Shown here: positions 6,664-34,916 of the stretch, piece after piece
Layout: every line of letters begins with the position of its first letter
Position numbering within the stretch: the first letter of the stretch is position 1
Assembly: GCA_949297805.1 (NCBI GenBank)
Contig: CASFTG010000001.1
Coordinates: 70,716 to 134,715, forward strand
Origin: an uncultured bacterium
GTDB lineage: Bacteria > Bacillota_I > Bacilli_A > RFN20 > CAG-826
Direction: 5' to 3'
Length of the DNA: 64,000 nt
Position numbers and translations under genes: made by a program
Notes under the pieces: generated by a model
What the model saw: the letters and a program-made list of their open reading frames with translations, nothing else
What the model was told of the DNA's origin: nothing
The model's database searches: none

Positions 6664-9369
6664 TTATTCCGCGACCCGGGTGAACGGGAGGAGGTTGTAA
6701 TAGCTTTCCTCATCTAACGAGCCGATGATGGGATAGTACTCGGCCGACCATTCCGATTCGGACGTGATGGTGCAATACATGCAGAGGGACAGGCTATCTT
6801 CACCCGGCAGGTATTCGAATTCCATCGAGATCTGGTCGGCGGTGTAGTCGAAGGGGTCCCCGGTGGTCTCCATGGCATAGACCTTGGCAATCAAGCTGCC
6901 GTGGTCATATTCATAGTAGATTGAGTAGGTGTCGGTATAGGTGCCGGCATCGACGGTGATGGTCCCTTTCTTCGGGGCGGTGTAGTAGTCCTCGTTGTAA
7001 TCGCCATCATAGGCCTCATCGGTCAATTCGATGGTGTAATCTCCCCAATCGTCGGAAGCGGTCCAACTGCCGGTCGGCAAGGCGGAAGCGGGCAGGACGG
7101 TGATGGTGAGGTAGTAGCCATTGGCGAAGGAGCTGGAGGTCGTGTCCATCCAGTCGGAGCGGATCCGGACTAGGACGTCGGTCGGCTCGGTGATGTTGGC
7201 GGTAGCCGGCGAGGAAACAGTGAGCTGCTTATTCGCGGTCGATTCGACGGTCAGGATGTTGGCGTAGGTTGGGTCGACTTCGGCGGTGAAGACGCAGGGC
7301 GCGCTGTCGGGGGTGACGATGACGCCATACGACTCAGTGGTGCCGACGTAGATCGAGGCTGAGCTGGTCGAGGTGACCATCGCGTTGCTGGTCCAGTCGA
7401 GGGAGAAGCTATGGAACTTCTTGGTGGCCGAGACTTGGATTTCGACATCGTGCTGGACGCCGCTGCTCTTGGTGTGGTTGGTGAGGGTGACGGTCGCGGT
7501 GCCGATGCCGACGCAGGTCATCTCGTTGTAGGCGTCATAGACGGTCTTGGTGATGATGCTGTCATCGCTGGATTCGGTCGGGGCGTATTGCCAGAGGTCA
7601 AGGGCGGTCGAGGGAGCGAACTCAACGGTGGCGTTCTCCAATTCATCATCGTCGTTGGCGGTGCTGACGGCGACTTTGTCGTCGTAATGGAGGACGTTGT
7701 TGGTTCCGGTGTCGGCGACGCCGGCTTCAGCATTGTAGAAGCGGACCTTGGTGAACTCCTGGATGAAGTAATCATCAGGGTTGAAGGTCGAGGGGAGGGC
7801 CGATTCGACGGTGCCATCGTAGGTATAGGTGGCGGCGATGGTCTTAGCGACGGTGCCGGCGGCTCCGTTAGTGGGGGCATGGGAGGTGAAGTTCCACTCA
7901 TCCTCGCCATAGGAGGTCTCGGTGTAATCCACGCCGGTCAATTCGCCTTTGGCAGTGAAGGTGAGGGTCACGTCGAAGATGACGCCTTCGTGATGTTCGC
8001 TGGTGTAGGTGCCTTCGCTGGAGTTGTATTCGACGACGGTGTCAAGGTCGGTGGTGAAGCCAGTATCGGTCTTGGTCGAGCTGACGTTGATCTTCGAATA
8101 GGAGACCTCGTCGTTGCTCTCCGAGTCAACGCCGACGCGGTAGGCGTACATCAAATCGTATTCCATCAAGCTCATCTGATGCGGGATGGTGTTGAGTTCG
8201 TGCATCGCGTTGGCGGTCGATTTGGTGAAGCGGCCTTCCTCATTGACGTCATCGATATCGTAACGGACCGAGAAGCCGGTGTTGGAACGGTTGCTTAGAC
8301 GATAGGGATCGTCATTGCCTTCACCCGGGGTATAAGTATCGGCGACGATGAATTGCTTAGTTTCGTCATCATAATGCTTATAGACGAAGTAATCGCGGTT
8401 GGTGCCGTTGTCCTTAACGGTCAAATAGGTCGTGTCATCGGCGTACTTATGCATCGCGATGGTGTTGTTGATGGTGTCATCTTTGATTTTGACCTCCATC
8501 GCGGTGAGGTTATCGGTGTTGATGGTCGAGGTGCTGCGGATCGAGCCGTCGAAGAGGCTATAAAGCTGATCGGCGTTGGAGGGCAGGGTATCGACGTTGG
8601 TCCGGCGGACATAGCAAGGACGCTCAGCCGCGGGATCGTAGAAGAAGTCATAAGTGGCGCCTGAGGCGATCTGGAGGTTCTGGTCCGACGGGTTGGAGGG
8701 CGAGGAGTAGATGAAGGTGATGTTGGCGAAGCACTTCCGCTCATCGACGGAGGCGACGTCAAGCTTGGTCTTGTTCCCGTCTTCGCCGGTGACCTGATAG
8801 GAGAACTTGGCCATGTCGGCGGTGGTGTTGACCGCGACCCCTTTGGCTTCGTAAATACCGGTTTCTGGGTTGAGGGTCAAAGCCGCGACCACATCGCCGA
8901 CTAAAGTGATGTCGCCTTTGACTTCGACATTGGGCTCGACCATGACCGATTGATTCGGCATGACGAAGGTATAGGTCTTGCCATCATCGGCGCTGGTGCA
9001 TTCGATGGTCTTGGAGCCAGCGACGACATTAATTCCCAATAAGGTATAGCCGGATTCGACTTTTTCGACGGTGATGGTAACCGTTTCCCCTTCGGCGGCC
9101 TTGGTTTTATCCAAGATAATTGTAACGCCGGTTTTGCTGCTGAGGCGGATGGCGTAGGTGTCGACAGGATCGACGGTCGAGCCGCCGCCGGAATTGGAAT
9201 CACTGCCAGTTTGGCTATCTGACGAGCCCGAATTGGTTTGCGATCCGCCGGTATTGCTATTCTCCGTCGTGCCGCTTGGGGTCGAGCTAGAGGAATCGGT
9301 TGGCTGGTTGCAACCGACCAGCAAGAAAGCCGCAGCTAGGATAGCAAGGGACTTGTTAGGTCTTTTCAT
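6664..9369 (-). CDS. Large acidic surface lipoprotein, type A (FxMP/InlB-B-like repeat plus Ig-like domains); paralogue of 17101..19686
   Basis: Lipobox LLVGC, Ser/Thr/Gly tether, YTFVMPNQSV domain; shares GATYDF[FY]YD and YDLMYAY with 17101..19686; AAGGAG RBS. Confidence 0.85.
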   Translation of the reverse strand: MKRPNKSLAILAAAFLLVGCNQPTDSSSSTPSGTTENSNTGGSQTNSGSSDSQTGSDSNSGGGSTVDPVDTYAIRLSSKTGVTIILDKTKAAEGETVTITVEKVESGYTLLGINVVAGSKTIECTSADDGKTYTFVMPNQSVMVEPNVEVKGDITLVGDVVAALTLNPETGIYEAKGVAVNTTADMAKFSYQVTGEDGNKTKLDVASVDERKCFANITFIYSSPSNPSDQNLQIASGATYDFFYDPAAERPCYVRRTNVDTLPSNADQLYSLFDGSIRSTSTINTDNLTAMEVKIKDDTINNTIAMHKYADDTTYLTVKDNGTNRDYFVYKHYDDETKQFIVADTYTPGEGNDDPYRLSNRSNTGFSVRYDIDDVNEEGRFTKSTANAMHELNTIPHQMSLMEYDLMYAYRVGVDSESNDEVSYSKINVSSTKTDTGFTTDLDTVVEYNSSEGTYTSEHHEGVIFDVTLTFTAKGELTGVDYTETSYGEDEWNFTSHAPTNGAAGTVAKTIAATYTYDGTVESALPSTFNPDDYFIQEFTKVRFYNAEAGVADTGTNNVLHYDDKVAVSTANDDDELENATVEFAPSTALDLWQYAPTESSDDSIITKTVYDAYNEMTCVGIGTATVTLTNHTKSSGVQHDVEIQVSATKKFHSFSLDWTSNAMVTSTSSASIYVGTTESYGVIVTPDSAPCVFTAEVDPTYANILTVESTANKQLTVSSPATANITEPTDVLVRIRSDWMDTTSSSFANGYYLTITVLPASALPTGSWTASDDWGDYTIELTDEAYDGDYNEDYYTAPKKGTITVDAGTYTDTYSIYYEYDHGSLIAKVYAMETTGDPFDYTADQISMEFEYLPGEDSLSLCMYCTITSESEWSAEYYPIIGSLDEESYYNLLPFTRVAE

Positions 9370-9602
9370 GTGCTGAATTTCACTCCTTTAAAAATCGCGC
9401 TCTATGATGGAAGCGAAATCAAATTTGTCAAATGTTTTTCCTCGCGCGCCTATATTTATTAATTTAGGATTAAAAAAAGTTTAGTGGCGTCAATGGTAGT
9501 TGGAGACCCTGTTGATCGTGATTAAATTATCGATTACCATCGCTATATTATTCGATTGATTCGAGACTTTTGTTAGAAGTCAATCAAAATACGAAAAATA
9601 AC

Positions 9603-9630
9603 TTGTACAAAACGGGTCGAACCATATAAT
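9603..9630 (+). promoter_or_regulatory. Sigma70/SigA-type promoter for lipoprotein operon 9663-14704
   Basis: TTGTAC-16-TATAAT, followed by AAGGAG RBS. Confidence 0.6.
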
Positions 9631-9662
9631 GAGCCCATCTTTCAAAGCGAAAGGAGAAAAAT

Positions 9663-11759
9663 ATGAGCAAAAAATCACGGTTGCTCGTCCTCACGGCTGG
9701 ACTCATCGGCATAGCCGGCACGGTCGGCGTGGCAACTGGTTGCACGTCCACGCCTTCCGAACTCGGAGGCCCGGTCGGGGTGGGGGAGGACAGTGTTGCC
9801 CCAGCCGACCCTTTAACCATTTCCGTCGATGTCGATGAGCGAATCGATGTTGAGGTGGCGCCCTCGGCGAAAGCGGGCAACATCGTCGATGTCAAATTGG
9901 ATTATGACGAGGACCTCGTCACGATTTCCGCGGTTAACATCAATGGAACGGGGAAAGCCGCCCAGGTCGATACCTTCGATTATTATTTCGAAATGCCCGC
10001 CGTCGCGGTTACTTTAACCGTTGAGGCGACGATTCGGGGTGAGTTCGAATTGGTGAATCTTAATCCGAACGTCGAACTTTATAACGTTCCCGAACTAGGA
10101 TTCCGGGCGGGGGAAGCGGTCACCTTCTCCCTTGGGTTACCAGTCGATAGCCCTTATACCCTCACTGACGTTGAGATTGGGGCTTTGAATGAGGATGGCA
10201 CCGCCATCGCGACGCCGATCGATTACACCGTCGCCGGCAATGTCTATAGCTTTACCGCTCCCGAAGGCCTGACCGCCGATGTCGGGGTTTTGGCGGGCAC
10301 CGAGGTCAAACTCTTTGCCATCAGTAGAGAGATTGACGATGTGGACGATAAAAATATCGGTAACATTTATGAAATCGTCGGCGAAGAAAGGACCGATGTG
10401 ACTTATTCTGGCTTTGCCTATTATGGCAGCACCATCGAAGTCCAATTGAAGGACACCGATTCGGCGATTGCAAAAGGTGTTCGGATCGTCGAGACCGGCG
10501 AGGAAATCATGCTGGAAGAAGGAGCGACTTCGGTTACTTTCACTATGCCGGCGAAGAACGTCCATCTTCAATCGATCGTCGATATCAACTACATTCCCAT
10601 CGAGATTCAGCAAGGCGAGCATGTTACTGGCGTCTTGAAACGGGTCGATGAAGAGACTGGCGAATTGGTCGCCATCGGCGAAGAAGGGGCGGTTCCGAAC
10701 GAATATATCTACTTCGACTACACGACCGATGACGAGAACTTCAAGCCCTATGACGTCAAAATCAGCTACAAGTCTATTTATGGATCGAATGACAACTTAA
10801 CTTCGACCGTTGATTCGGATTACGGGCTGCCGCGTTTCCGGATGGTGAATGGCTCCGAATTCAAACTAACCTTCGTTGAGGCGGAGAAGCAAACCATTAC
10901 CTTGCATAGTTCGACTAATCTTGAACTGAGCACTTATTACAACGTGGATGAAGAGTATGTCGCCACCAGCACGGCCTTCCAAGGCGAGGATGTCTATGTT
11001 TTGGTCAAGGACAAGTCGGCTAATAAGGATACTGAGATGCTCAGTTTGGAGATTTCCTATGTCGATGCCGAAGGAGTTGCTCAATCGATTACTGCTTCGT
11101 CTGCTGGCTACGCGAGCGAAGGTGAACAGTATTTCGCCTTCGAGATGAAAGACGGCACCGATTACTCAATTTCCGTCTATGAATTGGAACCCGGCAAATA
11201 CGCCGGAAAATCTTTTGTCGGAACCTACAATTATCGTGGCGAACTTTGGGGCTCTTACACGGATAGAAGCACTTACAGCGGTTCCTATACCATTGACGAG
11301 GATGGGTTGATCGACGCTAATATCGAAGAGCATATTCTTTCTATCACGGAAATCGCAGGCGGTGGACTTCTCACGCTGACCAATGGGCAAAAAGCCTTCT
11401 ATGGGGAAGACTTCTTTGTCACCGGGTATAACAAAAATTGGACCAATAATGACGTTTACATCCATTATCGGGGCGATGCTGGTCAAACCATCAATGTTCG
11501 CACCGTTTTGGCGGTGACTGATGGCGAAGACGTCGAAGAGGGGATTGGTTTCTACCAGATCTATTCGACCGCGGATGACGTCGAAACCCCGTTGGTTAAC
11601 TTCATCATCGATTACGGCAATAGGACTGCGATTGTGAACGAAGTTGAATACGTCACCACTGATGGGACGGCCTATCAGAATGCGACCACCTTCACCGTTA
11701 AGTCCGCAGGAACAGTCCTGGGGACCTACCTTGACGGAACCTACACCGTCGCCGAGTAG
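9663..11759 (+). CDS. Acidic surface lipoprotein, type B1 (tandem FxMP beta-repeat domains)
   Basis: Lipobox VATGC; repeated YYFEMP/YSFTAP/VTFTMP/FRMV/FAFEMK units; aligns with 11777..14704. Confidence 0.85.
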   Translation: MSKKSRLLVLTAGLIGIAGTVGVATGCTSTPSELGGPVGVGEDSVAPADPLTISVDVDERIDVEVAPSAKAGNIVDVKLDYDEDLVTISAVNINGTGKAAQVDTFDYYFEMPAVAVTLTVEATIRGEFELVNLNPNVELYNVPELGFRAGEAVTFSLGLPVDSPYTLTDVEIGALNEDGTAIATPIDYTVAGNVYSFTAPEGLTADVGVLAGTEVKLFAISREIDDVDDKNIGNIYEIVGEERTDVTYSGFAYYGSTIEVQLKDTDSAIAKGVRIVETGEEIMLEEGATSVTFTMPAKNVHLQSIVDINYIPIEIQQGEHVTGVLKRVDEETGELVAIGEEGAVPNEYIYFDYTTDDENFKPYDVKISYKSIYGSNDNLTSTVDSDYGLPRFRMVNGSEFKLTFVEAEKQTITLHSSTNLELSTYYNVDEEYVATSTAFQGEDVYVLVKDKSANKDTEMLSLEISYVDAEGVAQSITASSAGYASEGEQYFAFEMKDGTDYSISVYELEPGKYAGKSFVGTYNYRGELWGSYTDRSTYSGSYTIDEDGLIDANIEEHILSITEIAGGGLLTLTNGQKAFYGEDFFVTGYNKNWTNNDVYIHYRGDAGQTINVRTVLAVTDGEDVEEGIGFYQIYSTADDVETPLVNFIIDYGNRTAIVNEVEYVTTDGTAYQNATTFTVKSAGTVLGTYLDGTYTVAE

Positions 11760-11776
11760 AAAAGAGGTACTAAACA

Positions 11777-14704
11777 ATGAAAAACAATAGCAAATTGCTG
11801 CTTTCCCTCCTCTTGATGTCCGGCCTCACCCTCGGTGGGTGCGACCACCCGGGAAACAGTTCGTCGACTAGCGAGCAGACTCCTCCGACCAGTGACACCA
11901 ACACTGGCTCTGGCAGTTCGGAAAGCTCATCGTCTTCCTCGAGTTCCAGTTCAACTCCGACTCCAACGGTCTCAGTCGAGATCGCGACCCCGGCTTCCAC
12001 CGAAATTGAGGTCGGGAAGACATTGCAACTTTCCGCGACCATCACCAATGGAACTGATGGCGCCAAGGCCACCTGGTCCACGAGCGACGCCTCCATCGCC
12101 ACCGTCTCGGCCGATGGCTTGGTCACCGGCGTCAAGGCCGGCAAGGTCACAATCACCGCCGCCTATGGCGGGGCGGCCGACACCATCGAGTTGACCATCA
12201 AGGAAGCGGCTCCGGTCCTCTCGGTCGAGATCGCCGCCCCGGCCTCCACGGAAATCGAGGTCGGCAAGACCCTTCAGCTCACCGCGACCGTCGCCAACGG
12301 CCCGACCGACGCAAAGGCCACTTGGACCACCAGTGATGCCGCGATTGCCACCGTCTCGGCCGAGGGCCTGGTCACTGGTATTAAGGTCGGAACCGTTACT
12401 ATCACTGCGGCCTATGGTGGGGTTAGTGATTCTATCGCCTTAACCATCAAGGAACCGCCGGTCCCGACTTATGCCATTTCTGTCGTTGCTGATGCGGGCA
12501 TCACCACTTCCCTCCCCGAGAAGTCGGCGGCGGGCAAGACCGTTCATTTCCGCCTCACCTACGATGCGGCTAAATTGACCATCACCTCTGTCAAGGCCAA
12601 TGGCTTGGCCTGCGGCTTAGATCCGGATGGCACCTACTACTTCGTCATGCCGGAAACCGCCGTGACCGTCACCATCACTTCGACCGCCGTCGTCTCCCAG
12701 ACCACGACGACCATCAAAAACGAAACCGCGGAAGTGGCGGACATCATCGGCTTAGGCTCGACCGCGGTTGTCGGTTCGACCGCCGAGTTCTACCTCGTGA
12801 TGAAGCCAGGGTTTACTTTCGATTCGCTGAGCATTAAGTCCAGCGGGTTCATCGATGCCCCGGTCGACTATGAGACCAAGACGGTTGAGGGCAAGACCGT
12901 TTACAGTTTCACTGTTCCTTCGGGGGAAATCGTCATCCACGTGAATGCTTCCCGTTCCAGCTCCAAGCTCACCTACGACGATGAGTACATCTACAACATT
13001 TATCAGACCAAGGTCGGTTCGGATACCCGTGAATCGTGCAATTACGATATCGCGGAGTTCGGCGCCGACGTTGAGGTCCAGCTCCGGAGCACCACGACCG
13101 CTAAGGTCAAGGGGATCAAGATCGTTGAGACTGGACTGACGGTTGAACTGAAGGATGGGGCGAGCTCCATCCACTTCACGATGCCGTCGCGCTCAATCAC
13201 GATCGAAGTCCTGACCGAGGTTTATTATCGTTACTTCGAGGTCATCAATTCCGAACATCTCTCGATTCAAACTTTCGTTGAGGATGAGAATGGGGAACCG
13301 ACCGTTGTTGCTGGCGGTAAGGCGTTGGCGGGCGAGACGGTCTACGTCAAGGTCAATGGCGTCTCTGACTCCGTCGGCATCAATACCTTGGTTATGCATA
13401 ACCCTGAAGCCGAATATAGTTATCAGGAGAACGTTGATTTGCTTGAGGATGGGCCGAACGCCGAGGGCTATTACACCTTCGAGATGCCCGAAACTGATAA
13501 CGGCGTCACCATCACCGTCACCGAGAAAGACCTGACTGCCTTCCTTGGCTATCCGTTTGTCGGATCATATCTTGGCGACAATATCTGTGGGACTAGCGCT
13601 TCGACTGGCAAGACCGTAGGGACTTCCAATTACAGTTTCACCATTGATGGAGCCGGCGACTTCTACCGGGGTTCTGAACGTACCATCGTCAGCGCTACCT
13701 CGACCACGGGCCCTGGCATCGCATATTTGGAAGAGGAAGGAAGCGACAGCGATCTCTTCGCCTATTCTAGCGACGGCAAGATCATCTTCTCCCATTACAA
13801 TTTCGGCAGTTTAACCTCTGACGACAACCTCTTTGCCGTCAAGATGCAAAGCCCCGACGACGATCCATCGCTCTACACCATGGACTATGAGATCTTTGGC
13901 AATAAGAGCTATGTGGCCGTCCAGTATTACCGGGATGGCGTTGAGTATGCTGCGGCCTTTGTTGATTACCATGGCAAGACGCTCAATCCTCACTATAACC
14001 TCGACGTTGACTTCGAGTTCCTCGATGGTACCACCAAAATCACTGATACGATGGCTCATTACTACGTCAAAGATAGCGAAGGCAACACTCTTTGCGAAGT
14101 CTCTTCGACTGGTACCGGTGGGCAAAATAACCGTGTTATCTTAGACGGGCTGCAGGGTACCTATGCCGCAGCGGCTGGGGATACCTACAATCTTGGCGAC
14201 CTCGTTCTTGATGGCGCTGGACAGGCAACCCTAGGCGAAACCATCTCTGCCTCTTACAAGGTTGATGAAAGCGGGAACATTTCCATCACCTCGGGCAAAG
14301 ATACCTATGTCATCTCTTTGGATGCTACGGCGAAGACCTACACTATCGTTGAGCACACCGTCGCGGAGAATGAGTTCATCGGCAACACCTATAGCGGCCA
14401 ATTTATTGACGGCTGGGATGAGACCAATCTTGCTTCGATTGTCTTCTACGACGCCTCGACCTGCTATTTCACTATTACCGGTCCGAGCGGTCAGCCGGTT
14501 TATGTTCCGAACACCGCTAACCAAGGCATCCCGCAGTCATACACCATCAGCGGTTCGACCATCACCGTCAACGCCAAAGGGCAGTCGGGCGAAGACCTGA
14601 CCGTGACCTTGACGATCAACGATGATGGGACACTTACGATCGATGGCAACGTTTCCTCCTTCTATCTAACTGGCGGCACGGTCTTGGCAAAACAAGCCGC
14701 CTAA
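11777..14704 (+). CDS. Surface lipoprotein, type B2, with two Big_2 Ig-like domains and FxMP repeats
   Basis: Lipobox LGGC, poly-Ser tether, two VGKTLQL.AT...WxTSDxxIATVSxxGLVTGxKxGxVTITA repeats. Confidence 0.88.
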   Translation: MKNNSKLLLSLLLMSGLTLGGCDHPGNSSSTSEQTPPTSDTNTGSGSSESSSSSSSSSSTPTPTVSVEIATPASTEIEVGKTLQLSATITNGTDGAKATWSTSDASIATVSADGLVTGVKAGKVTITAAYGGAADTIELTIKEAAPVLSVEIAAPASTEIEVGKTLQLTATVANGPTDAKATWTTSDAAIATVSAEGLVTGIKVGTVTITAAYGGVSDSIALTIKEPPVPTYAISVVADAGITTSLPEKSAAGKTVHFRLTYDAAKLTITSVKANGLACGLDPDGTYYFVMPETAVTVTITSTAVVSQTTTTIKNETAEVADIIGLGSTAVVGSTAEFYLVMKPGFTFDSLSIKSSGFIDAPVDYETKTVEGKTVYSFTVPSGEIVIHVNASRSSSKLTYDDEYIYNIYQTKVGSDTRESCNYDIAEFGADVEVQLRSTTTAKVKGIKIVETGLTVELKDGASSIHFTMPSRSITIEVLTEVYYRYFEVINSEHLSIQTFVEDENGEPTVVAGGKALAGETVYVKVNGVSDSVGINTLVMHNPEAEYSYQENVDLLEDGPNAEGYYTFEMPETDNGVTITVTEKDLTAFLGYPFVGSYLGDNICGTSASTGKTVGTSNYSFTIDGAGDFYRGSERTIVSATSTTGPGIAYLEEEGSDSDLFAYSSDGKIIFSHYNFGSLTSDDNLFAVKMQSPDDDPSLYTMDYEIFGNKSYVAVQYYRDGVEYAAAFVDYHGKTLNPHYNLDVDFEFLDGTTKITDTMAHYYVKDSEGNTLCEVSSTGTGGQNNRVILDGLQGTYAAAAGDTYNLGDLVLDGAGQATLGETISASYKVDESGNISITSGKDTYVISLDATAKTYTIVEHTVAENEFIGNTYSGQFIDGWDETNLASIVFYDASTCYFTITGPSGQPVYVPNTANQGIPQSYTISGSTITVNAKGQSGEDLTVTLTINDDGTLTIDGNVSSFYLTGGTVLAKQAA
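11972..12454 (+). repeat. Tandem 249-bp intragenic duplication encoding two Big_2 domains
   Basis: SVEIATPASTEIEVGKTLQL... at 11972 and SVEIAAPASTEIEVGKTLQL... at 12221; period 83 codons. Confidence 0.85.
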
Positions 14705-14718
14705 CAACCTTCATCCCT

Positions 14719-14747
14719 AAAGCCCTCGGTTCTGCCCGGGGGCTTTT
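14719..14747 (+). terminator. Intrinsic terminator after B1-B2 operon
   Basis: aaagccctcgg-ttctgc-ccgggggctttt hairpin. Confidence 0.75.
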
Positions 14748-14857
14748 ACATTTGTTGCCAGCTTGTTATAAAAGCCAAAAAGACTTGCTTTTTTTGGAAC
14801 AACGCTTATTTTTGAGCGGGTCTAAACCCTATAGACATGACTATTCAAGGAGAAAAA

Positions 14858-16303
14858 ATGCGCAAAAGTCTATCCAAAAGCTTCTTTCTTGGCTTAACGC
14901 TGGCTTGCGTTCCCTTAGTTGGCTGTAAGGATAATTCCTCCAGCAGTGGTTCGGAAATCCAGATCGATGTCGATTATTCCTCGGTAAAGTCGGCGGTCGA
15001 ATCGATCCAAGGGGCCAACAACTTCACCGTCTCGACCAAAATCGTCGAGAAAATGAACGTCGGGACCGCGGATAATCCGGTTTACCAAGAGATCAATACC
15101 AGCTTCCATAACTACTACACCTCGAATTATTCCTGGTGTGATTATCCTGATGACGAGGAAGGCTATGCCCAGAAAGGCGGCGAGGTCTTCCGCCTCAACC
15201 TCAATAGCGATGGCGACTTCATCCATTCCGATGCCTATCTAGACGAGGATGGAAACAACCTCACTTCGATTTATGATGCGGTTTATAACCCAATCCCCGA
15301 TATCTCGGTTCTCAATGTGGGCGACGATCCGCTGGTCGCCTCGATCACCAATAAGTCCGCCCGTCTCAATTACATCCATTTCTTGGAGTTCGGCGACACC
15401 TTCTTGACCACCGTTACCTCGTTCAAGGCCTCGGTCGGGGAATCGGAGGGCGAGAAGGCTTTGCTCCTGACCATGGAGAGCAGTGACGGCACGACCATCA
15501 CCTCGACTTTCTCCGATTTCGGCACGACCGCGGTCAAGGATGTCCAAACCTATCTTGACGGGGTCGACAAAGCCGCCGTCTACGATGACATCCTCTTAAA
15601 GGTCGCCGATGGATTTAAAGGCAACAACTTCACCCGCGATATCAATGAATTGCTGACCTATGAGGATGACCCGGCGATCATCGGGAAGGAGTTTTATCAT
15701 CCCGATTATTGGTATGGTGGCTACTATCCTCCTTCATTAGGTGCCATCCAATCCACAGGTTATGTCAGTTTGCCTGAAAAAACGTATATTGATCCCGAGA
15801 CGGGCAAGTCCGCTGAGCTTGATGGGGCGTATATGTTCCGCCTCACCGAGAATATGGATGACCTTTATGCCGTTTATTTGACCGCCCCGGCCTTCACCAC
15901 CAACATCTCGAATATGGTCGATATCATGAACTATCCCTCGAAGATGATGATGTGGGAGCACAACTTCCAATTCTTCGAACCTTATCAGGACCCGAACTTC
16001 AAGTTGGATGGGGATATGTATATCACCTATGATCCCTTGATCATGCGGGATTTCTACGAGATCGCCCAAGTCGAGAACTCGATCCTCGCCTCGACCTCGA
16101 TCCTCTCCTGTCTCTTGGTCGATTTGATCCTAGTGGCTGATACCAATGCCGCCGGCAACCTTGAGACGGTCAATTTCCTCTTCGATATCCTCCTCAATGG
16201 GTCGAACGTCACCCTCCAATTCACCTACCATGATTTTGGGACCACGACCATCCCCTCCCTCGATCAATGGCTTCAAACTTATATTCACGATAGCAACGCT
16301 TGA
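14858..16303 (+). CDS. Acidic lipoprotein, type C (two internal NNFT...DFGTT repeats)
   Basis: AAGGAG RBS, lipobox LVGC, SSSSGS tether; ANNFT...FSDFGTT and GNNFT...YHDFGTT. Confidence 0.85.
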   Translation: MRKSLSKSFFLGLTLACVPLVGCKDNSSSSGSEIQIDVDYSSVKSAVESIQGANNFTVSTKIVEKMNVGTADNPVYQEINTSFHNYYTSNYSWCDYPDDEEGYAQKGGEVFRLNLNSDGDFIHSDAYLDEDGNNLTSIYDAVYNPIPDISVLNVGDDPLVASITNKSARLNYIHFLEFGDTFLTTVTSFKASVGESEGEKALLLTMESSDGTTITSTFSDFGTTAVKDVQTYLDGVDKAAVYDDILLKVADGFKGNNFTRDINELLTYEDDPAIIGKEFYHPDYWYGGYYPPSLGAIQSTGYVSLPEKTYIDPETGKSAELDGAYMFRLTENMDDLYAVYLTAPAFTTNISNMVDIMNYPSKMMMWEHNFQFFEPYQDPNFKLDGDMYITYDPLIMRDFYEIAQVENSILASTSILSCLLVDLILVADTNAAGNLETVNFLFDILLNGSNVTLQFTYHDFGTTTIPSLDQWLQTYIHDSNA

Positions 16304-16323
16304 AGATAGAAAGGACTCTTACC

Positions 16324-17091: not shown

Positions 17092-17100
17092 GGGCGATTT

Positions 17101-19736: not shown

Positions 19737-19780
19737 ATCGAAAATCGATCCCCCATAAGTGGTACCTCCTGCAATATAGC

Positions 19781-20304: not shown

Positions 20305-20334
20305 AAAACAAAAGCCATCCGGTTAGGGATGGCT
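20305..20334 (-). terminator. Intrinsic terminator for 20355..22565
   Basis: agccatcc/ggatggct stem, followed on the minus strand by a U-rich tract. Confidence 0.75.
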
Positions 20335-22681: not shown

Positions 22682-22715
22682 AAAAAATAAAAGAGCCGAG
22701 AGGTTATCTCGGCTC
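22682..22715 (-). terminator. Intrinsic terminator for the M6 protease gene
   Basis: Perfect 9-bp stem gagccgaga/tctcggctc with a long U-tract on the minus strand. Confidence 0.8.
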
Positions 22716-24829: not shown

Positions 24830-24857
24830 ATAATATAGGTTCGCCGGATTTAGTCAA
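24830..24857 (-). promoter_or_regulatory. Probable SigA promoter for the M6 protease
   Basis: Minus strand TTGACT-16-TATTAT upstream of AGAGAGG RBS. Confidence 0.5.
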
Positions 24858-25053
24858 CTTATTTAGCGTTTTCGGGCGAACAATAGGGCAATATGCCCAT
24901 TTATGCTTACTATGAATTTTGATGAAAACAGCGAATTATTGCGGTCCTTTGTTTGCCGTTGCGGAATTTTTGGTTGGGATTTTTGATATATCGATTCTTC
25001 CTCGTTTTCCTTTGGTTATTGATTTATCGCCTATTTCCTCTAGTATTCGCCTT

Positions 25054-25458
25054 GTGAAAAAATCGTTTTGGATCGCTTTTGGCATCACCACGGGCTTCAG
25101 TTTGCTGGCCTTCTTCCTGATGCTCTTCCTCCGGGCGGGGAATATCTATTCGCGGTTAAGCGACGCTTTCTTCGTTGGCGGGACCATCGTCTTGGCCTTT
25201 CTTGGCTTCCGCGTCATCGGACGGAGCGGAACCTTTGACTTGCTAGGATATGCCAGCTACCGTTTCTTCGAGGCTTATCGCCATCAGGGAATGGACAAGC
25301 GGTTTGAGGATGCCGGGGATTATCATGAATACAAGCTTGAGCAACGGGCTAAGAATAAATTCGTTTGGCTGCCGTACTTCATTATCGGCTTAACCGAATT
25401 TGCCCTCGGCGTCGTCTTCATGATTGTTTTCCTGACTAACAGCCCAGCCGTTAGGTAA
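25054..25458 (+). CDS. DUF3899-like membrane protein (opp-associated)
   Basis: 3 TM segments; LSDAFF..G and SGTFDLLGY pattern; sits directly before oppA. GTG 25054 preferred over TTG 24919. Confidence 0.7.
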   Translation: MKKSFWIAFGITTGFSLLAFFLMLFLRAGNIYSRLSDAFFVGGTIVLAFLGFRVIGRSGTFDLLGYASYRFFEAYRHQGMDKRFEDAGDYHEYKLEQRAKNKFVWLPYFIIGLTEFALGVVFMIVFLTNSPAVR

Positions 25459-28344: not shown

Positions 28345-29412
28345 ATGAAAGACAGTACCAAATACGTGATAGAGAGAATCCTGTTCATTTTATTGACAGC
28401 TTTCATTGTTCTCTCTGTCACCTACATCCTCTTGCAGTGCATGCCACTGGAGCCGAATGCTACCAACTTCACCGAGGAATTCCGCTTCTGGCAGCAGCAG
28501 GTCACCCTTGGCTTCTACTATGAAATCGATGCCAGTACCCCGGAGGGGCTGGAGGCCATCGCCAATCATGAATACGAGCAGATGGTCACCATCAACTCGC
28601 AGAATTACTATTTCGCGCCTTATCCGATTTTAGTCCGTTATTGGAACTGGCTTGTTAACGTCGTCACTAAGTGGGATTGGGGCCGCTCGACTTCGGTCGC
28701 CCTCAACCAAAGCGCCATCTCGATCATCGTCATGCGCTTGCCGGCTTCGATGAAGCTCAACATCATCTCGATCATTATCTCGGTGCCTTTGGGCTTAGGC
28801 TTAGGCATCTGGGCCGCGCTTAAGAAGAACACCTGGGTCGATTCGCTTATCTCGACCATCATCATGATCTTCATCTCGGTCCCGTCCTTCGTCCTTATCT
28901 CTTTCTTATTGTTGGGATTCGGGAAAATACCAGGCTTCCCGATCCGTTGGCCGAGCCAAGCCAACGCCGCGGCCGATCCTTTGCTGGCCTTTGAGGCTTA
29001 CATTATTCCGGTTTTGTCCTTGTCCTTCGGCTCGATCTGCTCGTTCGCCCGTTATACCCGGGCCGAACTTTGTGAGGTCATGTCGAGCGAATTCTTGTTG
29101 CTCGCGCGGACTAAGGGCTTAACCAAGGGCCAGTCGGTCGTCCGCCACGCCCTCCGGAACTCGCTTGTTCCGATCGTCCCGATGATCATCTCCCAATTCA
29201 TCTCGATCCTTTCCGGCTCGATGGTCTTGGAGCAAATCTACGGTATTCCTGGCATCGGATCCTTGTTCGTCACCGCCTTAACCGGCAAGGACTATCCGGT
29301 CATCATGGTCGATATGGCCATCTACACCTTAATTGGCTTATTCGCCACCTTAATCGTCGACCTAAGTTATAGCATCGTCGACCCGCGTATCAGAATGGGG
29401 GCTAAGAAGTAA
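28345..29412 (+). CDS. oppB: Oligopeptide ABC transporter permease OppB
   Basis: WDWGRS, EAA loop ARTKGL...RHALRNSL, EQIYGIPGIG, VDPRIR. Confidence 0.92.
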   Translation: MKDSTKYVIERILFILLTAFIVLSVTYILLQCMPLEPNATNFTEEFRFWQQQVTLGFYYEIDASTPEGLEAIANHEYEQMVTINSQNYYFAPYPILVRYWNWLVNVVTKWDWGRSTSVALNQSAISIIVMRLPASMKLNIISIIISVPLGLGLGIWAALKKNTWVDSLISTIIMIFISVPSFVLISFLLLGFGKIPGFPIRWPSQANAAADPLLAFEAYIIPVLSLSFGSICSFARYTRAELCEVMSSEFLLLARTKGLTKGQSVVRHALRNSLVPIVPMIISQFISILSGSMVLEQIYGIPGIGSLFVTALTGKDYPVIMVDMAIYTLIGLFATLIVDLSYSIVDPRIRMGAKK

Positions 29413-29414: not shown

Positions 29415-31604
29415 ATGGAAAACGAAAAGAAAAACACCGATTTCGAATCGGCGCAAGACTTCGAGTTCGTCCAGCAAGACGCCTCGATTCACGATCAAAA
29501 GTTTGAGACCAAGCCGACCACCTATTTCAAAGACGCGATGAAGCGGTTCGTCAAGAACCGTTCCTCGGTCGTGGCTGGCTGCATCCTCTTCGTCCTTATC
29601 GCCATGGCCATCATTGTTCCGGTGGCTAATAAGAACGACATCGACAATCCGGTCGCGGCGGCTCGTTATCTGCCCCCGAAGTGGTTTGATGGCGACACCG
29701 GTGGCTTCATGGACGGGACTGGTTATGTCGAGAATGCTATTCTTGACCCCAGCACCAACAATTTGCCATCGGATTCATATTACAAATCTTATGCCGTCAT
29801 CGGCGACATCGAATCGACCCAATCGTATTCTGATACTTGGGACGAATCGGTCCGGAATTACGGCAAGAATGGGGCAATCCGGCTTGGCAACGGCTCCAGT
29901 GAGAACGAAGTCGGTATCTTCGAGTCGGAAGAATCTGGCCTTCTTTCCCCGGTTGTCCAACTGGCTTTGACTGATTCCTCAGTCAGTTACGAAGTGACTT
30001 TCTATCCTAATTCCTATGCCGACAACCACGTTGAAGGGACGGAGATTGTTTCCTATATCGGCTGGGTTTTCGAAACCTCCGCCGATACTCCGAGCGAAAC
30101 CGAGGTTTTAGCCGAGGAATCAACCGATACTCCGAGCGAAGACATCCCAGAGGAAGGCGGGGAGGAAATCCCTGAAGAACCCGCGGAAGAGCTGACCATC
30201 GTTCCATTGATGGACCCCCTATCCTTAACCGATGAAACCACCTCGATGGAAGTCGAGAATGTCGTCGGCATCCTCCAAGAAGGCGGCTATCTCGATGGGG
30301 CGTCCGAACAGGTTTCCGGCCGGTTCGCCATCGTCTACGATGCTCCCGTCGATGCGGCGGCTTCGGCCAATTCGCTTTATATCCAGTCAGTTCAGGCGAG
30401 GGGGACTACCTCTAGTGTTGGCGCCGCTTCCTTCTCCAACGCCACCCAAGCTTATGCTTCTCTAAATGCTGGTGGCTATTCCCGCTTAAACGAGATCTCC
30501 TCGACCGGCATCTACCATTCTGAGGTCACTTACGGCGCTTTCCGCTATGACTATTACGAAGCGGCCTTCGGTGACGTGGCGGGGCAAGAGTTTACTAAAA
30601 ACGACATCGATACTTATGTTAGCCATGGCTGGATTGAATCCCTTTCCTGCAGGGGTATGGTCGGCGGGGAAATCACCCTCTTCAGCCTCTCAAACGGCGA
30701 CACCGCCATCGATTGGAGCAAAGCTCCGATGACTTCCACCTCGGTCACTTTGGTCTTGACCGAGGAAGGCGACACATATTGCCCGTTACGGTCGATTCAG
30801 ACTTTACGGGCGGTCAATTTAGGCGGTGAGGTCGGAACCTCGGTTTCCGTCTATGGGACCCAATCCCTTTATCGTCTTCTTTATGAGCAGGATAAGATCG
30901 GCTCCTGCAAGATGCCGAAATACTTCTTCGGGACCGATCGGAACGGGAAAGACTTCTTCAAGTTGGTCTTCTCCGGCTTATTGACCTCCCTTGGCTTGGG
31001 CTTATTGAGCTCGGCCATCAATATCGTCATCGGCCTTATCTGGGGCGCCATCTCTGGCTACTTCGGCGGCTGGGTCGATATGTTGATGGAACGGTTCTGC
31101 GAGATCCTCGGCGGCATGCCCTTCATCGTCATGATGACGCTTATAGTCTTGCTATTGGGTTCGAACTTCTGGACCTTCCTGCTCGCCCTCTGCCTTACTG
31201 GCTGGATGGGGGTCGCGGCCGAGACCAGGCGACAGTTCTATCGATATAAGCGAAGGGAATACGTCTTGGCCTCAAGGACTTTGGGCGCGAGCGACACCCG
31301 GCTTATCTTCAAGCACATCCTGCCCAACGGCATCGGCCCGATCATCACCGGCGCCATCCTTATGATCCCATCGGTCATCTTCACCGAAGCCAATATCTCC
31401 TACTTATTGCCTTCGGCCTTGGCCTTCTCGGGATCGCAGTCATTCGGCATTACCTTGTCCAACGTCCAAGGCGACTTGCAGAACTACCCTTACCTAATCG
31501 TCAGCGCCTCCATCGTCATGGCTTTGATCATGATTTGTTTCAACCTGTTCGGCAATGGCTTGCGCGACGCCTTCAACCCAGCTTTGAAAGGAGCGGATGA
31601 GTGA
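29415..31604 (+). CDS. oppC: Oligopeptide ABC transporter permease OppC with ~400-aa extracellular insertion
   Basis: KRFVKNRSSV N-terminal helix, FGTDRNGKD, REYVLASRTLGA...KHILPN, GNGLRDAFNP. Confidence 0.9.
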   Translation: MENEKKNTDFESAQDFEFVQQDASIHDQKFETKPTTYFKDAMKRFVKNRSSVVAGCILFVLIAMAIIVPVANKNDIDNPVAAARYLPPKWFDGDTGGFMDGTGYVENAILDPSTNNLPSDSYYKSYAVIGDIESTQSYSDTWDESVRNYGKNGAIRLGNGSSENEVGIFESEESGLLSPVVQLALTDSSVSYEVTFYPNSYADNHVEGTEIVSYIGWVFETSADTPSETEVLAEESTDTPSEDIPEEGGEEIPEEPAEELTIVPLMDPLSLTDETTSMEVENVVGILQEGGYLDGASEQVSGRFAIVYDAPVDAAASANSLYIQSVQARGTTSSVGAASFSNATQAYASLNAGGYSRLNEISSTGIYHSEVTYGAFRYDYYEAAFGDVAGQEFTKNDIDTYVSHGWIESLSCRGMVGGEITLFSLSNGDTAIDWSKAPMTSTSVTLVLTEEGDTYCPLRSIQTLRAVNLGGEVGTSVSVYGTQSLYRLLYEQDKIGSCKMPKYFFGTDRNGKDFFKLVFSGLLTSLGLGLLSSAINIVIGLIWGAISGYFGGWVDMLMERFCEILGGMPFIVMMTLIVLLLGSNFWTFLLALCLTGWMGVAAETRRQFYRYKRREYVLASRTLGASDTRLIFKHILPNGIGPIITGAILMIPSVIFTEANISYLLPSALAFSGSQSFGITLSNVQGDLQNYPYLIVSASIVMALIMICFNLFGNGLRDAFNPALKGADE

Positions 31605-33529
31605 TTATGAACAAATACAAAACCATCGATTACCCCGCTTCGGTCGGGGTGCAGGAAAAAGGCAAGGAACCGGTCCTTTCGGTCCGGAATCTCGCTATCT
31701 CCTTTAAAACCGACGAGGGGATGGTCAAAGCCGTCCGCGGCGTCTCCTTCGATTTATACAAGGAGGAGACCTTATGCATCGTCGGCGAGTCCGGCTCGGG
31801 CAAATCGGTCACCAACAAGACCATCATGGGCATCCTCCCCAAAAGCGCCCGTATCGAATCGGGTTCGATCGTCTATGAAGGCGAGGATTTGACCCAGGTC
31901 TCCGAGGATGAGTTCCATAACATCCGTGGCACCAAGATCGGGATGATCTTCCAAGACCCCTTATCGTCTTTAAACCCGATCATGCGGATCGGCAAGCAGA
32001 TCACCGAGGTCATGCTCATCAATGGGCATCACCTGAAGAATCTTTTCAAAGACATCGTCAATGACTCCTTCATCAAGTTGAAAAACGATGAACGGCTCCT
32101 CCAACTCGCCCAAAGCGATCTTAAGCATGCCTTAGCCGACATCAAAGCGGCCATCGCCAAGGAGAAAGAAGACGCCAAAGTCGACGAGCGGACCCCGAAC
32201 CTCGAGCCCCTATTCGCCAAGCAGCAAGAGTCCAAAGAGGCGTATCAGAAAAAGAAAGCTGAACTAAAGGCCATCATCGCGGAAGACAAAGCCGCCTATT
32301 CGGCGAAAAAGAAGGAAGCTAAGCAGGCGGTGCGCGAGAAGCGCCTGGCCTTGCGGAAAGAGCATTGGGAGAAACTCCGCCCGATCTATAAGTCCTTCTT
32401 CGATAAGACCCCGTCAAACGAAGCCAAGGCCAAGATTGCCGAGGCGAAGAAGAAATACGAGGCGGCCATGGCCTTGCCGGAGAACAATCCGAGCGAGGAC
32501 GAATTGATCGACCTCTATGCCTCTATCGTCAACCCGAAGGAAAAAGCGGTCGCCGAATTAAAGGAAAAGCTTGAGACGCTTTCGGCCAACAAAGGGAGCG
32601 ACGAAGGCTTAGTCGCCTATAACGAATGCCGGTTGGCGCTTCGTGATGCCAAAAAAGCCGCCGCTTTGGCGAAGAAAGAAGCCAAGAAAGCGGTCCACGA
32701 GAAGAAATATGGCCCCCGCGACGCCTATCGGGCTGAGGTTAAGCCCCTTTATAAAGACCTATTGACCTTCCCGGCCTTCAAGAAAGCCTATGATGACTTC
32801 CTGATTGAGCATCGCCGTTACCTTTCTTGCCTCCGGGTCACCCATAAGGAGGCGAAGGAACGGGCCCTGAAGATCATGGCCGAAGTCGGCATCCCCCAGC
32901 CGGAACGCCGGTTCTACCAATATCCATTCGAGTTCTCCGGCGGCATGCGGCAACGGATTGTCATCGCCATCGCCCTCACCGCCCATCCGGATATTTTGAT
33001 TTGCGATGAGCCGACGACCGCCCTTGACGTCACCATCCAGGCCCAGATCCTGGAGCTGATCAATGAATTGAAGGCCAAACACCATATGTCGGTCATCTTC
33101 ATCACCCATGACCTGGGGGTCGTGGCTAATATGGCCGATCGGGTCGCGGTTATGTATGCTGGCAAAATCGTCGAATACGGGAAAGCCGACGAAGTGTTCT
33201 ATTCGCCCGCCCATCCCTATACCTGGGCTTTGCTTTCCTCCATCCCCGACGTTGATTCGAAGGAAAAGCTCGAAGCGATCCCCGGCACCCCGCCGAACAT
33301 GCTCTTCCCGCCCAAAGGCGATGCCTTCGCGGCAAGAAGCAAATACGCCCTCGGCATCGACTTCAAGGAAGAGCCGCCGATGTTCGAAATTTCGCCCACC
33401 CATTACGCCGCCACTTGGCTATTGGATGAACGGGCCCCGGAATACAAGATGCCCTCGATCGTCGCCACCCGAATCAAGAACTCCTTGAAACGGGCCAAGA
33501 AGCAAACCGGAGGTAAGAAAGATGAATGA
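31601..33529 (+). CDS. oppD: Oligopeptide ABC transporter ATPase OppD with coiled-coil insertion
   Basis: GESGSGKS, IFQDPLSSLNP, YPFEFSGGMRQR, DEPTTALDVT, THDLGVV, HPYT. Confidence 0.92.
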   Translation: MIMNKYKTIDYPASVGVQEKGKEPVLSVRNLAISFKTDEGMVKAVRGVSFDLYKEETLCIVGESGSGKSVTNKTIMGILPKSARIESGSIVYEGEDLTQVSEDEFHNIRGTKIGMIFQDPLSSLNPIMRIGKQITEVMLINGHHLKNLFKDIVNDSFIKLKNDERLLQLAQSDLKHALADIKAAIAKEKEDAKVDERTPNLEPLFAKQQESKEAYQKKKAELKAIIAEDKAAYSAKKKEAKQAVREKRLALRKEHWEKLRPIYKSFFDKTPSNEAKAKIAEAKKKYEAAMALPENNPSEDELIDLYASIVNPKEKAVAELKEKLETLSANKGSDEGLVAYNECRLALRDAKKAAALAKKEAKKAVHEKKYGPRDAYRAEVKPLYKDLLTFPAFKKAYDDFLIEHRRYLSCLRVTHKEAKERALKIMAEVGIPQPERRFYQYPFEFSGGMRQRIVIAIALTAHPDILICDEPTTALDVTIQAQILELINELKAKHHMSVIFITHDLGVVANMADRVAVMYAGKIVEYGKADEVFYSPAHPYTWALLSSIPDVDSKEKLEAIPGTPPNMLFPPKGDAFAARSKYALGIDFKEEPPMFEISPTHYAATWLLDERAPEYKMPSIVATRIKNSLKRAKKQTGGKKDE

Positions 33530-34916
33530 GGAAAAACGTCTCCAACTGAACTCCGAGAAAGCGGAACGGAAAGAAAAAGTCGCCGAGGCAAAGGCCGCCT
33601 TAAAGGACTTTAAGACTAAATATAAAGGCGTCGAGTTAGACGAAGCCCTCCGGGAGGAGCGGCTCGCCCTCGAAGCTAATCTTCGCGATGCCAAGCGGGC
33701 CCTCTCGCTTGTTGGAGTCACCTATGATCCTTCTTTGAAAGAGGAGAACGTCATCTTAGATGTCCGCCACTTAAAGGAATTCTTCAAATCTGGCGAATAC
33801 AAGACCAAAGCCGTCCATGACATCTCCTTCAAAATCCATGAAGGCGAATGCTTCGGCTTAGTCGGGGAGTCAGGCTGCGGCAAGACCACGACCGGCCGCT
33901 GCATCATCGGCCTTTATCCCATCACCTCCGGCTCGATCTATTACAAAGGGTACCGGATCGCCGCTGGGAGCCGTTGGAACGAGAAGGAAATCAAGTGGAC
34001 CCGGATCAGGGACAATTCCAAGATCAAGGTCTTAAAACGCGAGCTCCGCGATAAGCTTTCGGAAGCGGCCTCCGAGGATGAAAAGGAATCTTTGCGGGCC
34101 GAATATGCGGCGAAAATCAATGAGATCAAAGCCCATACTCAATCAATTGTTTCGGTTCAGAAAGAGAAGATCGCCCAGATCCGTTATGACAATAAGCATT
34201 CCTCGAGCAAGCTCCGGAATGAGATCCAGATGATCTTCCAAGACCCGATCGACTCCCTCGACCCCCGTATGACGGTCGAGGACATCATCGTCGAAGGCCT
34301 TCATATCCAGGGCCAATACGATAAGGAGGAGAATCGACGGGCGGTGGAACGGGTCCTCCGCCAAGTCGGCCTCATCCCCGAATACGCTTCCCGTTATCCC
34401 CATGAGTTCTCCGGCGGCCAGCGGCAACGGATCGGCATCGCCCGGGCTTTGATCATGAACCCGAAGCTATTGATTTGCGATGAGCCGATCTCGGCTCTCG
34501 ACGTCTCGATCCGGGCTCAGGTCCTTAACCTGCTTAACGAGATTAAGGATTCGATGAAGCTCACGATGCTATTCATCGCTCATGACCTTTCGGTCGTCAA
34601 ATACTTCTGCGACCGGATCGGGGTCATGTATTTCGGCGATATGGTTGAGCTTGCCTCCTCGGAAGAATTATTTAGACACCCGCTTCACCCTTATACCAAA
34701 GCCTTGCTTTCCGCCATCCCGAAGCCTGATCCATTGTCAGAGAAGAACCGGATCCGGAAAGTGTATAACCCGGCGACGACCCACGATTATTCGAAGCAGA
34801 AGCCGACTTTTAGGGAATTGATCCCCGGCCACTTCGTCTTATGCAACGACGAAGAGGAGAAGAAGTACTTAGAGGAGATCAAAGCCCTCGACGAAGGAGA
34901 GAAGAGCAATGATTAA
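33522..34916 (+). CDS. oppF: Oligopeptide ABC transporter ATPase OppF with helical extensions
   Basis: GESGCGKTT, IFQDPIDSLDPR, RYPHEFSGGQRQR, DEPISALDVS, HPYTKALL. Confidence 0.92.
   Translation: MNEEKRLQLNSEKAERKEKVAEAKAALKDFKTKYKGVELDEALREERLALEANLRDAKRALSLVGVTYDPSLKEENVILDVRHLKEFFKSGEYKTKAVHDISFKIHEGECFGLVGESGCGKTTTGRCIIGLYPITSGSIYYKGYRIAAGSRWNEKEIKWTRIRDNSKIKVLKRELRDKLSEAASEDEKESLRAEYAAKINEIKAHTQSIVSVQKEKIAQIRYDNKHSSSKLRNEIQMIFQDPIDSLDPRMTVEDIIVEGLHIQGQYDKEENRRAVERVLRQVGLIPEYASRYPHEFSGGQRQRIGIARALIMNPKLLICDEPISALDVSIRAQVLNLLNEIKDSMKLTMLFIAHDLSVVKYFCDRIGVMYFGDMVELASSEELFRHPLHPYTKALLSAIPKPDPLSEKNRIRKVYNPATTHDYSKQKPTFRELIPGHFVLCNDEEEKKYLEEIKALDEGEKSND

Follow-up and report, generated by a model that had tools for sequence, protein, structure and literature searches.

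Gene order at the locus

The window analysed here is a 64,000-nt stretch of DNA from an uncultured bacterium (GTDB lineage Bacteria; Bacillota_I; Bacilli_A; RFN20; CAG-826), positions 70,716 to 134,715 of contig CASFTG010000001.1 in assembly GCA_949297805.1, and all positions below are counted from its first letter. Our subject is a gene for an M6/InhA-like zinc metalloprotease lipoprotein that stands head-to-head with the genes of an oligopeptide importer (Opp), together with the lipoprotein genes beside them. The source assembly is 1.65 Mb in 11 contigs, has about 51% G+C and is 94% complete. Translation table 11 gave clean, tightly packed open reading frames (ORFs) across the region and table 4 merely fused or extended frames, so TGA was taken as a stop in this genome.

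The protease gene (22729-24807, minus strand) encodes 692 residues with the lipobox LAAC. It has a promoter-like site at 24857..24830 and a terminator-like hairpin at 22715..22693. About 110 nt separate its start from that of a divergent gene for a small DUF3899 membrane protein (24919-25458, plus strand; PF13038 at 28.6 bits, cut-off 23.4), which opens the opp transcription unit and probably starts in truth from the ATG at 24922. The plus strand continues with OppA, an 883-residue lipoprotein (25561-28212; lipobox LASC; PF00496 E 8.3e-14 over residues 342-684), the permeases OppB (28345-29412; 355 residues; PF00528 E 9.7e-38) and OppC (29415-31604; 729 residues; OppC_N at residues 36-88 and BPD_transp_1 at 540-725), and the ATPases OppD (31601-33529; 642 residues) and OppF (33522-34916; 464 residues). 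The best NCBIfam models for the two ATPases were MMSYN1_0167 (E 1e-138) and MMSYN1_0168 (E 7.6e-123), both below cut-off. A gene for a 222-residue multi-pass membrane protein (TM222; 34909-35577) comes next, its start overlapping the oppF stop by 8 nt, and is followed by a HAD hydrolase gene on the same strand.

A predicted lipid-anchored M6-like protease

From its lipobox cysteine (Cys26) the protease runs through a Ser-rich tether and an Ig/PKD-like domain (about residues 43-137) into catalytic and C-terminal domains (178-684). Its zinc motif, HETGHMMGAPD at residues 381-391, reads H381-E382-xx-H385-xx-G388-xx-D391, and HExxHxxGxxD is the zinc-binding motif that defines MEROPS family M6. In an alignment of 48 sequences C26, E382, G388 and D391 were invariant and H381 and H385 were conserved in at least 90%. 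A Pfam scan of the protease gave no match even at E<=10, PF05547 included, and the NCBIfam M6 domain model TIGR03296 gave E 7.7e-27 and 94.9 bits, under its cut-off of 110.8. A database search recovered 1322 homologues at E<=1e-5 among 8000 scored candidates; 7 of the 120 homologues listed carried PF05547, and JGI labels many 'M6 family metalloprotease-like'.

The fold was assessed with an AlphaFold2 model (predicted local distance difference test, pLDDT, 85.9; predicted template modelling score, pTM, 0.87). VIA-align matched residues 178-684 to InhA2 (4yu5_B) at Z 17.7, with a root-mean-square deviation of 3.4 over 367 aligned residues, and the runner-up among solved structures was far behind at Z 8.9. 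Foldseek matched the model to the InhA2 zymogen at E 2.4e-9. The Ig/PKD-like domain (43-137) scored Z of about 7-8, which marks merely a common fold, and a PDB sequence search with the protease returned nothing at E<=1. On the combined strength of motif, alignment, model and InhA2 fold match we accepted that the protein belongs to the InhA/M6 kind, as a divergent and lipid-anchored member with predicted endopeptidase activity. An earlier note on this DNA, made from its letters alone, had named the eighth lipoprotein of the region an M6 zinc protease transcribed head-to-head with DUF3899-oppABCDF, and motif, fold and gene order all agree with it.

Immune inhibitor A (InhA) of the Bacillus cereus group shares the zinc motif HExxHxxGxxD with the protease, and the catalytic and C-terminal domains of the solved InhA2 (4YU5, 4YU6) superpose on it. 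The differences are considerable: identity to InhA2 in the structural alignment is about 17%, PF05547 is not matched here, and InhA2 is a secreted zymogen whereas the protein studied here, encoded beside opp, is a lipoprotein whose N-terminal part includes an Ig/PKD-like domain. The family is also expanded here, to seven M6-like lipoproteins in a 1.65-Mb genome, six of them away from opp. Those six paralogues (G000:C3:51865-56537, G000:C3:106859-110184, G000:C6:48756-50267) sit mostly in two tandem arrays with other lipoproteins on the flanks. An M6-like catalytic domain was found in 140 of 151 genomes sampled from the family, with 1-9 matches each.

Linkage of protease and opp in relatives

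Linkage was counted in eight same-genus genomes, 17 public loci and nine genomes of the family sample; these sets overlap, come from one clade, and some of the public loci belong to the same assemblies. All eight same-genus genomes had an M6 orthologue (43-95% identical) head-to-head with DUF3899, and oppA and the downstream genes were present in the seven whose contig continues. TM222 followed oppF in all six whose contig reaches that far (eight examined). At the public loci, where the protease is 40-95% identical, DUF3899 adjoined M6 in 17/17 and OppA was present in 16/17, the sole locus without it being a 2.6-kb contig. In the family sample of 151 genomes, which spans 48 genera, the M6 orthologue (E<=1e-100) occurred in nine genomes of three genera and lay beside DUF3899 and/or opp genes in every one of them. 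The linkage has outlived a rearrangement, since genome G092 retains it in the co-directional order oppB-oppC-oppD-oppF-DUF3899-LP588-M6, on one strand throughout.

A quick tree grouped the 21 Opp-linked proteases in one clade (Shimodaira-Hasegawa-like approximate likelihood ratio test, SH-aLRT, 99) and left the six paralogues of this genome outside it. Because all linked proteases form a single clade, the linkage arose once and was then kept, and the counts are not independent events. Judged from gene order, the conserved unit is M6 divergent from DUF3899-oppABCDF-TM222.

Features of the Opp importer

All five components of an oligopeptide importer were recognised (PF00496, PF00528 twice, PF12911, PF00005 twice and PF08352 twice), and the best NCBIfam models for the subunits were the oligopeptide ones, all of them below equivalog cut-offs. 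The PF00496 match in this OppA is the only one in the whole genome, which makes OppA its sole family-5 binding protein. A PDB sequence search with OppA gave nothing at E<=0.01.

In OppC an extracytoplasmic insert (about 90-500; about 400 residues) separates the first transmembrane segment from the permease core. In an AlphaFold2 model of OppC (pLDDT 75.3, insert mostly 80-90) the insert forms a jelly-roll-like beta-sandwich (about 138-369) and an alpha/beta part (370-490), with an acidic, disordered stretch at residues 222-257. Solved structures of M. tuberculosis OppC and E. coli DppC matched the core at Z 22.9. Among non-transporters the insert came closest in fold to the InhA2 beta-sandwich domain (Z 8.5), with CBM- and MAM-like jelly rolls after it (Z 6-8); as Z values of 8.5 or less lie in a range common for the tool, no fold family was assigned. 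Searched alone against 1.84 billion representative proteins, the insert found 19 clusters at E<=0.001, all of 601-743 residues, and by this sequence search the OppC ectodomain is restricted to this lineage.

The ATPases are enlarged as well. Residues 412-606 of OppD align to positions 118-312 of a 318-position OppD model, and its insert of about 250-290 residues is helical, cytoplasmic and rich in Lys, Glu and Ala; OppF has an N-terminal extension and an internal insert. The models that fit them best, MMSYN1_0167 and MMSYN1_0168, have 561 and 649 positions, compared with about 320-330 for canonical models. Because these Mycoplasma models fit best, we regard the long ATPases and the large lipoprotein OppA as a trait shared with Mollicutes and not as local remodelling. 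The OppA of M. hominis is likewise described as a large multifunctional lipoprotein (PMC3179953). Compared with the Mollicutes-type Opp (MMSYN1_0166, MMSYN1_0167, MMSYN1_0168) the importer is alike in its preference for the long OppD and OppF models and in its large lipoprotein OppA. It differs in scoring below the equivalog cut-offs and in an OppC with about 400 extra residues relative to the Mycoplasma OppC model, which at 307 positions has no ectodomain; the organism also differs, using the standard code at about 51% G+C.

The genus contains a second Opp type whose OppA is about 33% identical; it shares the large OppA, the insert in OppC and the long ATPases, so the OppC insert is not specific to the protease-linked operon. 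An M6-like neighbour was present at just one of seven second-type loci (in genome G007), and the gene there is a different paralogue, located upstream. The large insertions that the earlier note saw in the Opp subunits are real, and what it took for remodelling is largely the Mollicutes type of Opp, with an OppC insert found also in operons without an M6 neighbour.

The two small membrane proteins of the unit were also compared. A report on Enterococcus faecalis V583 places a DUF3899 gene inside the oppA-oppBCDF operon (bioRxiv 10.64898/2026.09.22.753285). In both organisms an opp operon is accompanied by a gene for a small DUF3899 membrane protein, which lies antisense inside the operon there and is the first sense-strand gene here. 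TM222 matched no Pfam family at E<=0.01 and gave nothing useful at loose Pfam and NCBIfam thresholds, and its language-model look-alikes were unnamed clusters with all scores <0.9. This Opp may have in TM222 an accessory subunit that has gone unrecognised.

A variable lipoprotein island beside the module

The protease and OppA close a series of nine lipobox ORFs packed into 21.5 kb (6664-28212). In each of them the signal peptide ends with a lipobox and its invariant Cys, and all nine Cys motifs read as the earlier note had quoted them. The other seven are LP1 (6664-9369, minus strand; LVGC), LP2 (9663-11759, plus; ATGC), LP3 (11777-14704, plus; LGGC), LP4 (14837-16303, plus; LVGC), LP5 (16300-17091, plus; LVGC), LP6 (17101-19686, plus; LAAC) and LP7 (20355-22565, minus; 736 residues; ATSC). 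The acidic bodies and Ser/Thr tethers described earlier were likewise found, the mature forms of all nine having a pI of 4.05-4.34 and between 7 and 25 Ser+Thr in their first 40 residues, with most starting in a Ser/Thr-rich tether. Lipoproteins make up 9 of 10 consecutive genes here, against 112 candidates (some of them false) among 1489 ORFs in a crude genome-wide lipobox scan, which is far beyond independent placement. This run is the longest in the genome; others hold 6, 4, 4 and 4 genes, so clusters of lipoprotein genes are a general trait of this genome.

Domain searches gave few assignments. LP1 is a paralogue of LP6, the two being 28.6% identical across about 750 residues; a module of about 310 residues is common to LP2 and LP3, and the genome has one copy each of LP4, LP5 and LP7. 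Big_2 domains occur in LP3, as two tandem repeats, and in LP7 (E 3.3e-10), which consists of this domain and about 600 residues without a recognised fold. LP6 gave a sub-threshold InlB-B-repeat-like match. LP1, LP2, LP4 and LP5 gave nothing useful in Pfam or NCBIfam at loose thresholds, PDB sequence searches with LP6 and LP7 gave nothing usable, and the language-model look-alikes of LP7 were unnamed or Big_2 clusters only. Across these searches (Pfam and NCBIfam for LP1-LP7, PDB for LP6 and LP7) no recognisable peptidase or binding-protein family was found. Terminator-like hairpins follow LP6, LP7 (20334..20313) and M6.

The lipoproteins were compared with the closest relative, G015, whose DNA is 92.9% identical up to 6565, shows no similarity over 6566-14962, is 66% identical over 14963-17087 (LP4-5) and returns to 91.6% from 22732. 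At the protein level the left flank keeps a high identity (LtaS-like protein 94%, M18 98%, uridine kinase 99%), as does the right part from LP7 (97%) through M6 (94.5%), DUF3899 (90%), OppA-F (96-99.8%) and TM222 (99.6%) to HAD (89%). Between them LP4, LP5 and LP6 fall to 56%, 56% and 59%, and LP1-LP3 have no counterpart, their place in G015 being taken by a 670-residue lipoprotein and a 1320-residue protein. LP4-6 are 42-54% identical in species whose protease is just 60% identical; being about equally distant there and in G015, they suggest exchanged alleles rather than simple fast drift. At the 17 public loci LP4-LP5-LP6 were present in four, LP7 in six and the C-terminal part of LP3 in one. 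The order LP4-LP5-LP6-LP7-M6-opp was kept in four, two named Candidatus Alloenteromonas species among them. The six LP7 copies beside M6 are 29-40% identical, or 97% in the G015 contig L035, and LP7 was absent or weakly matched in G016, G004 and G009.

From these comparisons LP1-LP6 form a separate, strain-specific, hypervariable island of predicted surface lipoproteins with Ig-like domains and a putative role in adhesion or antigenic diversity; it adjoins the M6-opp module and is probably not required by it. LP7 appears to be a clade-restricted accessory gene, conserved beside M6 only in nearer relatives. The earlier note had joined the whole lipoprotein array to the protease and importer as a possible protein analogue of a polysaccharide utilisation locus, and had proposed synteny across relatives as one check. 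M6 and opp were found linked throughout (8/8, 17/17, 9/9), a pair wherever the orthologue exists. The nine lipoproteins do not form one system, as LP1-LP6 are unlinked or variable and LP7 is linked in nearer relatives only.

The island was also set against the variable surface lipoprotein clusters of mycoplasmas. LP1-LP6 resemble these in being clustered, acidic, tethered and sharply different between close relatives; they differ in being large and multi-domain, with Ig-like modules and no switching signature found. No tandem repeat, homopolymer or invertible element indicative of phase variation was found in the array, where the paired Big_2 domains of LP3 (11970-12422) make up the sole tandem repeat, and no invertible-element-like repeats flank promoters. 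The variable-lipoprotein signal model NF033817 matched LP7 with no better than E 0.058 (13.4 bits, cut-off 22). With that match below cut-off and no repeat or inversion switching signature, Mycoplasma-type phase-variable lipoproteins were rejected as a classification.

The 670-nt spacer where LP6 and LP7 converge, close to the island's right edge, contains a 21-nt inverted repeat (19781-19801/19872-19892; 95% complementary, 70 nt apart). The hairpin at 19770-19900 folds at -45.1 kcal/mol (z -4.1), a stability that none of 200 shuffles reached; the genome has a single copy of it, and it matched no Rfam family. Close by, a contig from a related strain that covers LP7 (run X1) loses its match at 20123, with dense mismatches at 20153-20342, and the closeness of this break to the breakdown of identity with G015 is consistent with a common right boundary of the variable island.

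On the left of the array the gene for a cytoplasmic M18 aminopeptidase (4573-5883, plus strand; PF02127 E 2.9e-69) lies where the earlier note had placed it, with a uridine kinase gene (udk) between it and LP1. Its proposed membership of the locus did not hold up: within 20 kb on each side M18 occurs in only 2/8 genomes, in the same position in G015 and just downstream of TM222 in G016, and it was not found within that distance in G001, G004, G008 and G009. We treat it as a loosely linked accessory. In G016 (L027, G016:C18, about 12251-15073) the udk-M18 pair is directly downstream of TM222 and convergent with it. The position of udk-M18 beyond the array here, versus by TM222 in G016, suggests an older M18-udk/M6/opp neighbourhood that received the array by insertion or in which the array became inverted.

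Physiology of the organism and presence in RNA data

The genome was searched for genes that bear on cell wall and nitrogen physiology. In the 94%-complete genome there was no family match for a penicillin-binding protein (PBP) transpeptidase, MraY or CodY, and control genomes were positive for each. Peptidase genes comprise two PepF-like, one PepC and the M18 gene. The organism looks wall-less, yet it has the standard code and about 51% G+C, unlike classical Mollicutes, which have low G+C and read TGA as Trp. The earlier assignment to a Mollicutes-like gut lineage agrees with the missing PBP and MraY matches.

Part of the stretch is contained in one metatranscriptome run (share of words 0.24). 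The contigs of this run come from a strain that is mostly 90-95% identical; they cover LP7, extend from M6 to OppD in one contig of 10.3 kb, and in another reach beyond HAD, and none covers 16300-18967. Because a contig crosses divergent genes and DNA carry-over is possible, we read these contigs as presence only.

Protease and importer as a proposed feeding module

The reading that we favour, and hold to be moderately probable, is that the protease and the sole Opp form a feeding module with two promoters in an apparently wall-less, probably amino-acid-dependent gut bacterium, with a separate lipoprotein island adjacent. From its fold and intact HExxHxxGxxD motif, the protease would be held on the outer membrane face by its Ser-rich tether and would cut dietary or host proteins there. 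By homology, the lipoprotein OppA would capture the resulting oligopeptides and OppBCDF would import them. Cytoplasmic PepF-like, PepC and M18 peptidases, to judge from the presence of their genes, would complete the breakdown. More speculatively, the OppC ectodomain might serve at the mouth of the transporter as a platform for docking or positioning, much like the MalF P2 loop, which positions maltose-binding protein at the maltose transporter.

Several observations weigh against a feeding module. Bacillus InhA-type enzymes are known mainly for degrading host defence proteins. With its own promoter-like site and terminator-like hairpin, M6 stands outside the opp operon; inspection of the intergenic region by eye revealed no operator common to relatives, its sole palindrome (24886-24898) is altered in the nearest relative, and CodY had no match in the genome. 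The comparative data amount to a single retained arrangement, plus a rearrangement and, in G007, a separate adjacency, and not to many independent events. M6-like genes are present in 140/151 genomes, and among the matches listed none lies within 15 kb of other Opp loci; only one of the seven second-type Opp loci adjoins an M6-like gene. As other Opp loci are mostly without an M6-like neighbour, protease-Opp adjacency is not a family-wide rule.

One alternative is an adjacency that is historical, in which M6 serves defence or colonisation, for instance by cleaving host antimicrobial peptides, immunoglobulins or mucus proteins, or processes the cell's own surface proteins, and Opp is housekeeping. 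In its favour, the nearest solved relative of M6 is an immune inhibitor A enzyme, six of the seven M6-like paralogues are not near opp, the family at large is mostly unlinked to Opp among the matches listed, M6 is a separate transcription unit, and the linked cases all fall in one clade. Even so, we judge this account rather unlikely: linkage has been kept down to about 40% protease identity and across three genera, opp, DUF3899 and M6 stayed together despite the changed order and orientation in G092, and in G007 a second, unrelated paralogue adjoins the second Opp type. A signalling module, in which the protease matures a secreted pro-peptide that Opp imports for a cytoplasmic regulator, has precedent in the peptide quorum-sensing of this design in Bacillus and Enterococcus; Opp takes up signalling peptides in other Bacillota, and the divergent layout would suit co-regulation. 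Against it, Pfam and NCBIfam scans of the 19 ORFs from 2640 to 36243 found no regulator family, the ORF lists hold no conserved short-peptide gene beside the module, and a nutritional role is expected anyway for the only Opp in the genome, and we consider signalling extremely improbable.

A wider locus, with all nine lipoproteins and M18 devoted to protein foraging and LP1-LP7 binding or scaffolding substrate for M6 and Opp, would account for the nine lipoproteins among ten consecutive genes and for the LP4-LP5-LP6-LP7-M6-opp order at 4/17 public loci, and Ig-like domains could bind proteins. It is very unlikely in the light of the comparison with G015, where LP1-LP3 lack a counterpart and LP4-LP6 are 56-59% identical against 89-99.8% for the flanks. 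LP7 is absent or weak in G016, G004 and G009 and was not found at 11/17 loci, no LP belongs to a recognisable peptidase or binding-protein family, and LP6, LP7 and M6 each end in a terminator-like hairpin of their own. There is, finally, a slight chance that the feeding module is a physically coupled machine in which the OppC ectodomain, DUF3899 and TM222 hold M6 and OppA at the transporter mouth and the hypervariable lipoproteins are exchangeable substrate-capture modules. If true, it would be a single-membrane counterpart of Sus-like systems, with peptides cut and captured in one place.

Comparison with known systems and wider implications

The proposed feeding module was compared with systems of known function, which it matches in part. 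According to PMC7783315, the proteolytic system of lactic acid bacteria consists of the cell-envelope proteinase PrtP, Opp and intracellular peptidases, and so combines, as the gene content does here, a surface endoprotease, Opp and PepF/PepC/aminopeptidase peptidases in amino-acid-dependent Bacillota. The enzymes differ, being a lipid-anchored M6 metallopeptidase here and a wall-linked S8 subtilisin there. The protease gene here is head-to-head with opp on the chromosome, and no CodY was found. To our knowledge, prtP does not lie beside opp in lactococci. The Sus-like polysaccharide utilisation loci of Bacteroidota are alike in concept only, as they too encode surface lipoproteins, a hydrolase and an importer together; here there is no outer membrane, and hydrolase and importer alone are co-conserved, the lipoprotein array not.

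In the literature searched, supplements being outside its scope, the term 'protein utilization locus' and its variants were not found, and nothing related linked an M6 metalloprotease with oligopeptide. These uncultured gut bacteria, with relatives named Candidatus Alloenteromonas, have small genomes in which wall-synthesis genes were not detected, and the available parts of the literature on this group yielded no functional content. The pairing of a protease with a sole importer offers a testable model of amino-acid supply from host or dietary protein in such bacteria, and a protease family present in 140/151 family genomes may influence how proteins and peptides are turned over in the animal gut. 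As an unusual extension of a transporter that has been studied well, the OppC ectodomain is a good structural target. The hypervariable island would mark the surface proteins likeliest to be under host or phage pressure.

Further left of the array, the window encodes an LtaS-like sulfatase-family membrane protein (2640-4589; PF00884 E 5.5e-7) in a genome without detected peptidoglycan genes. This protein may make a membrane-anchored glycerophosphate polymer or modify lipids.

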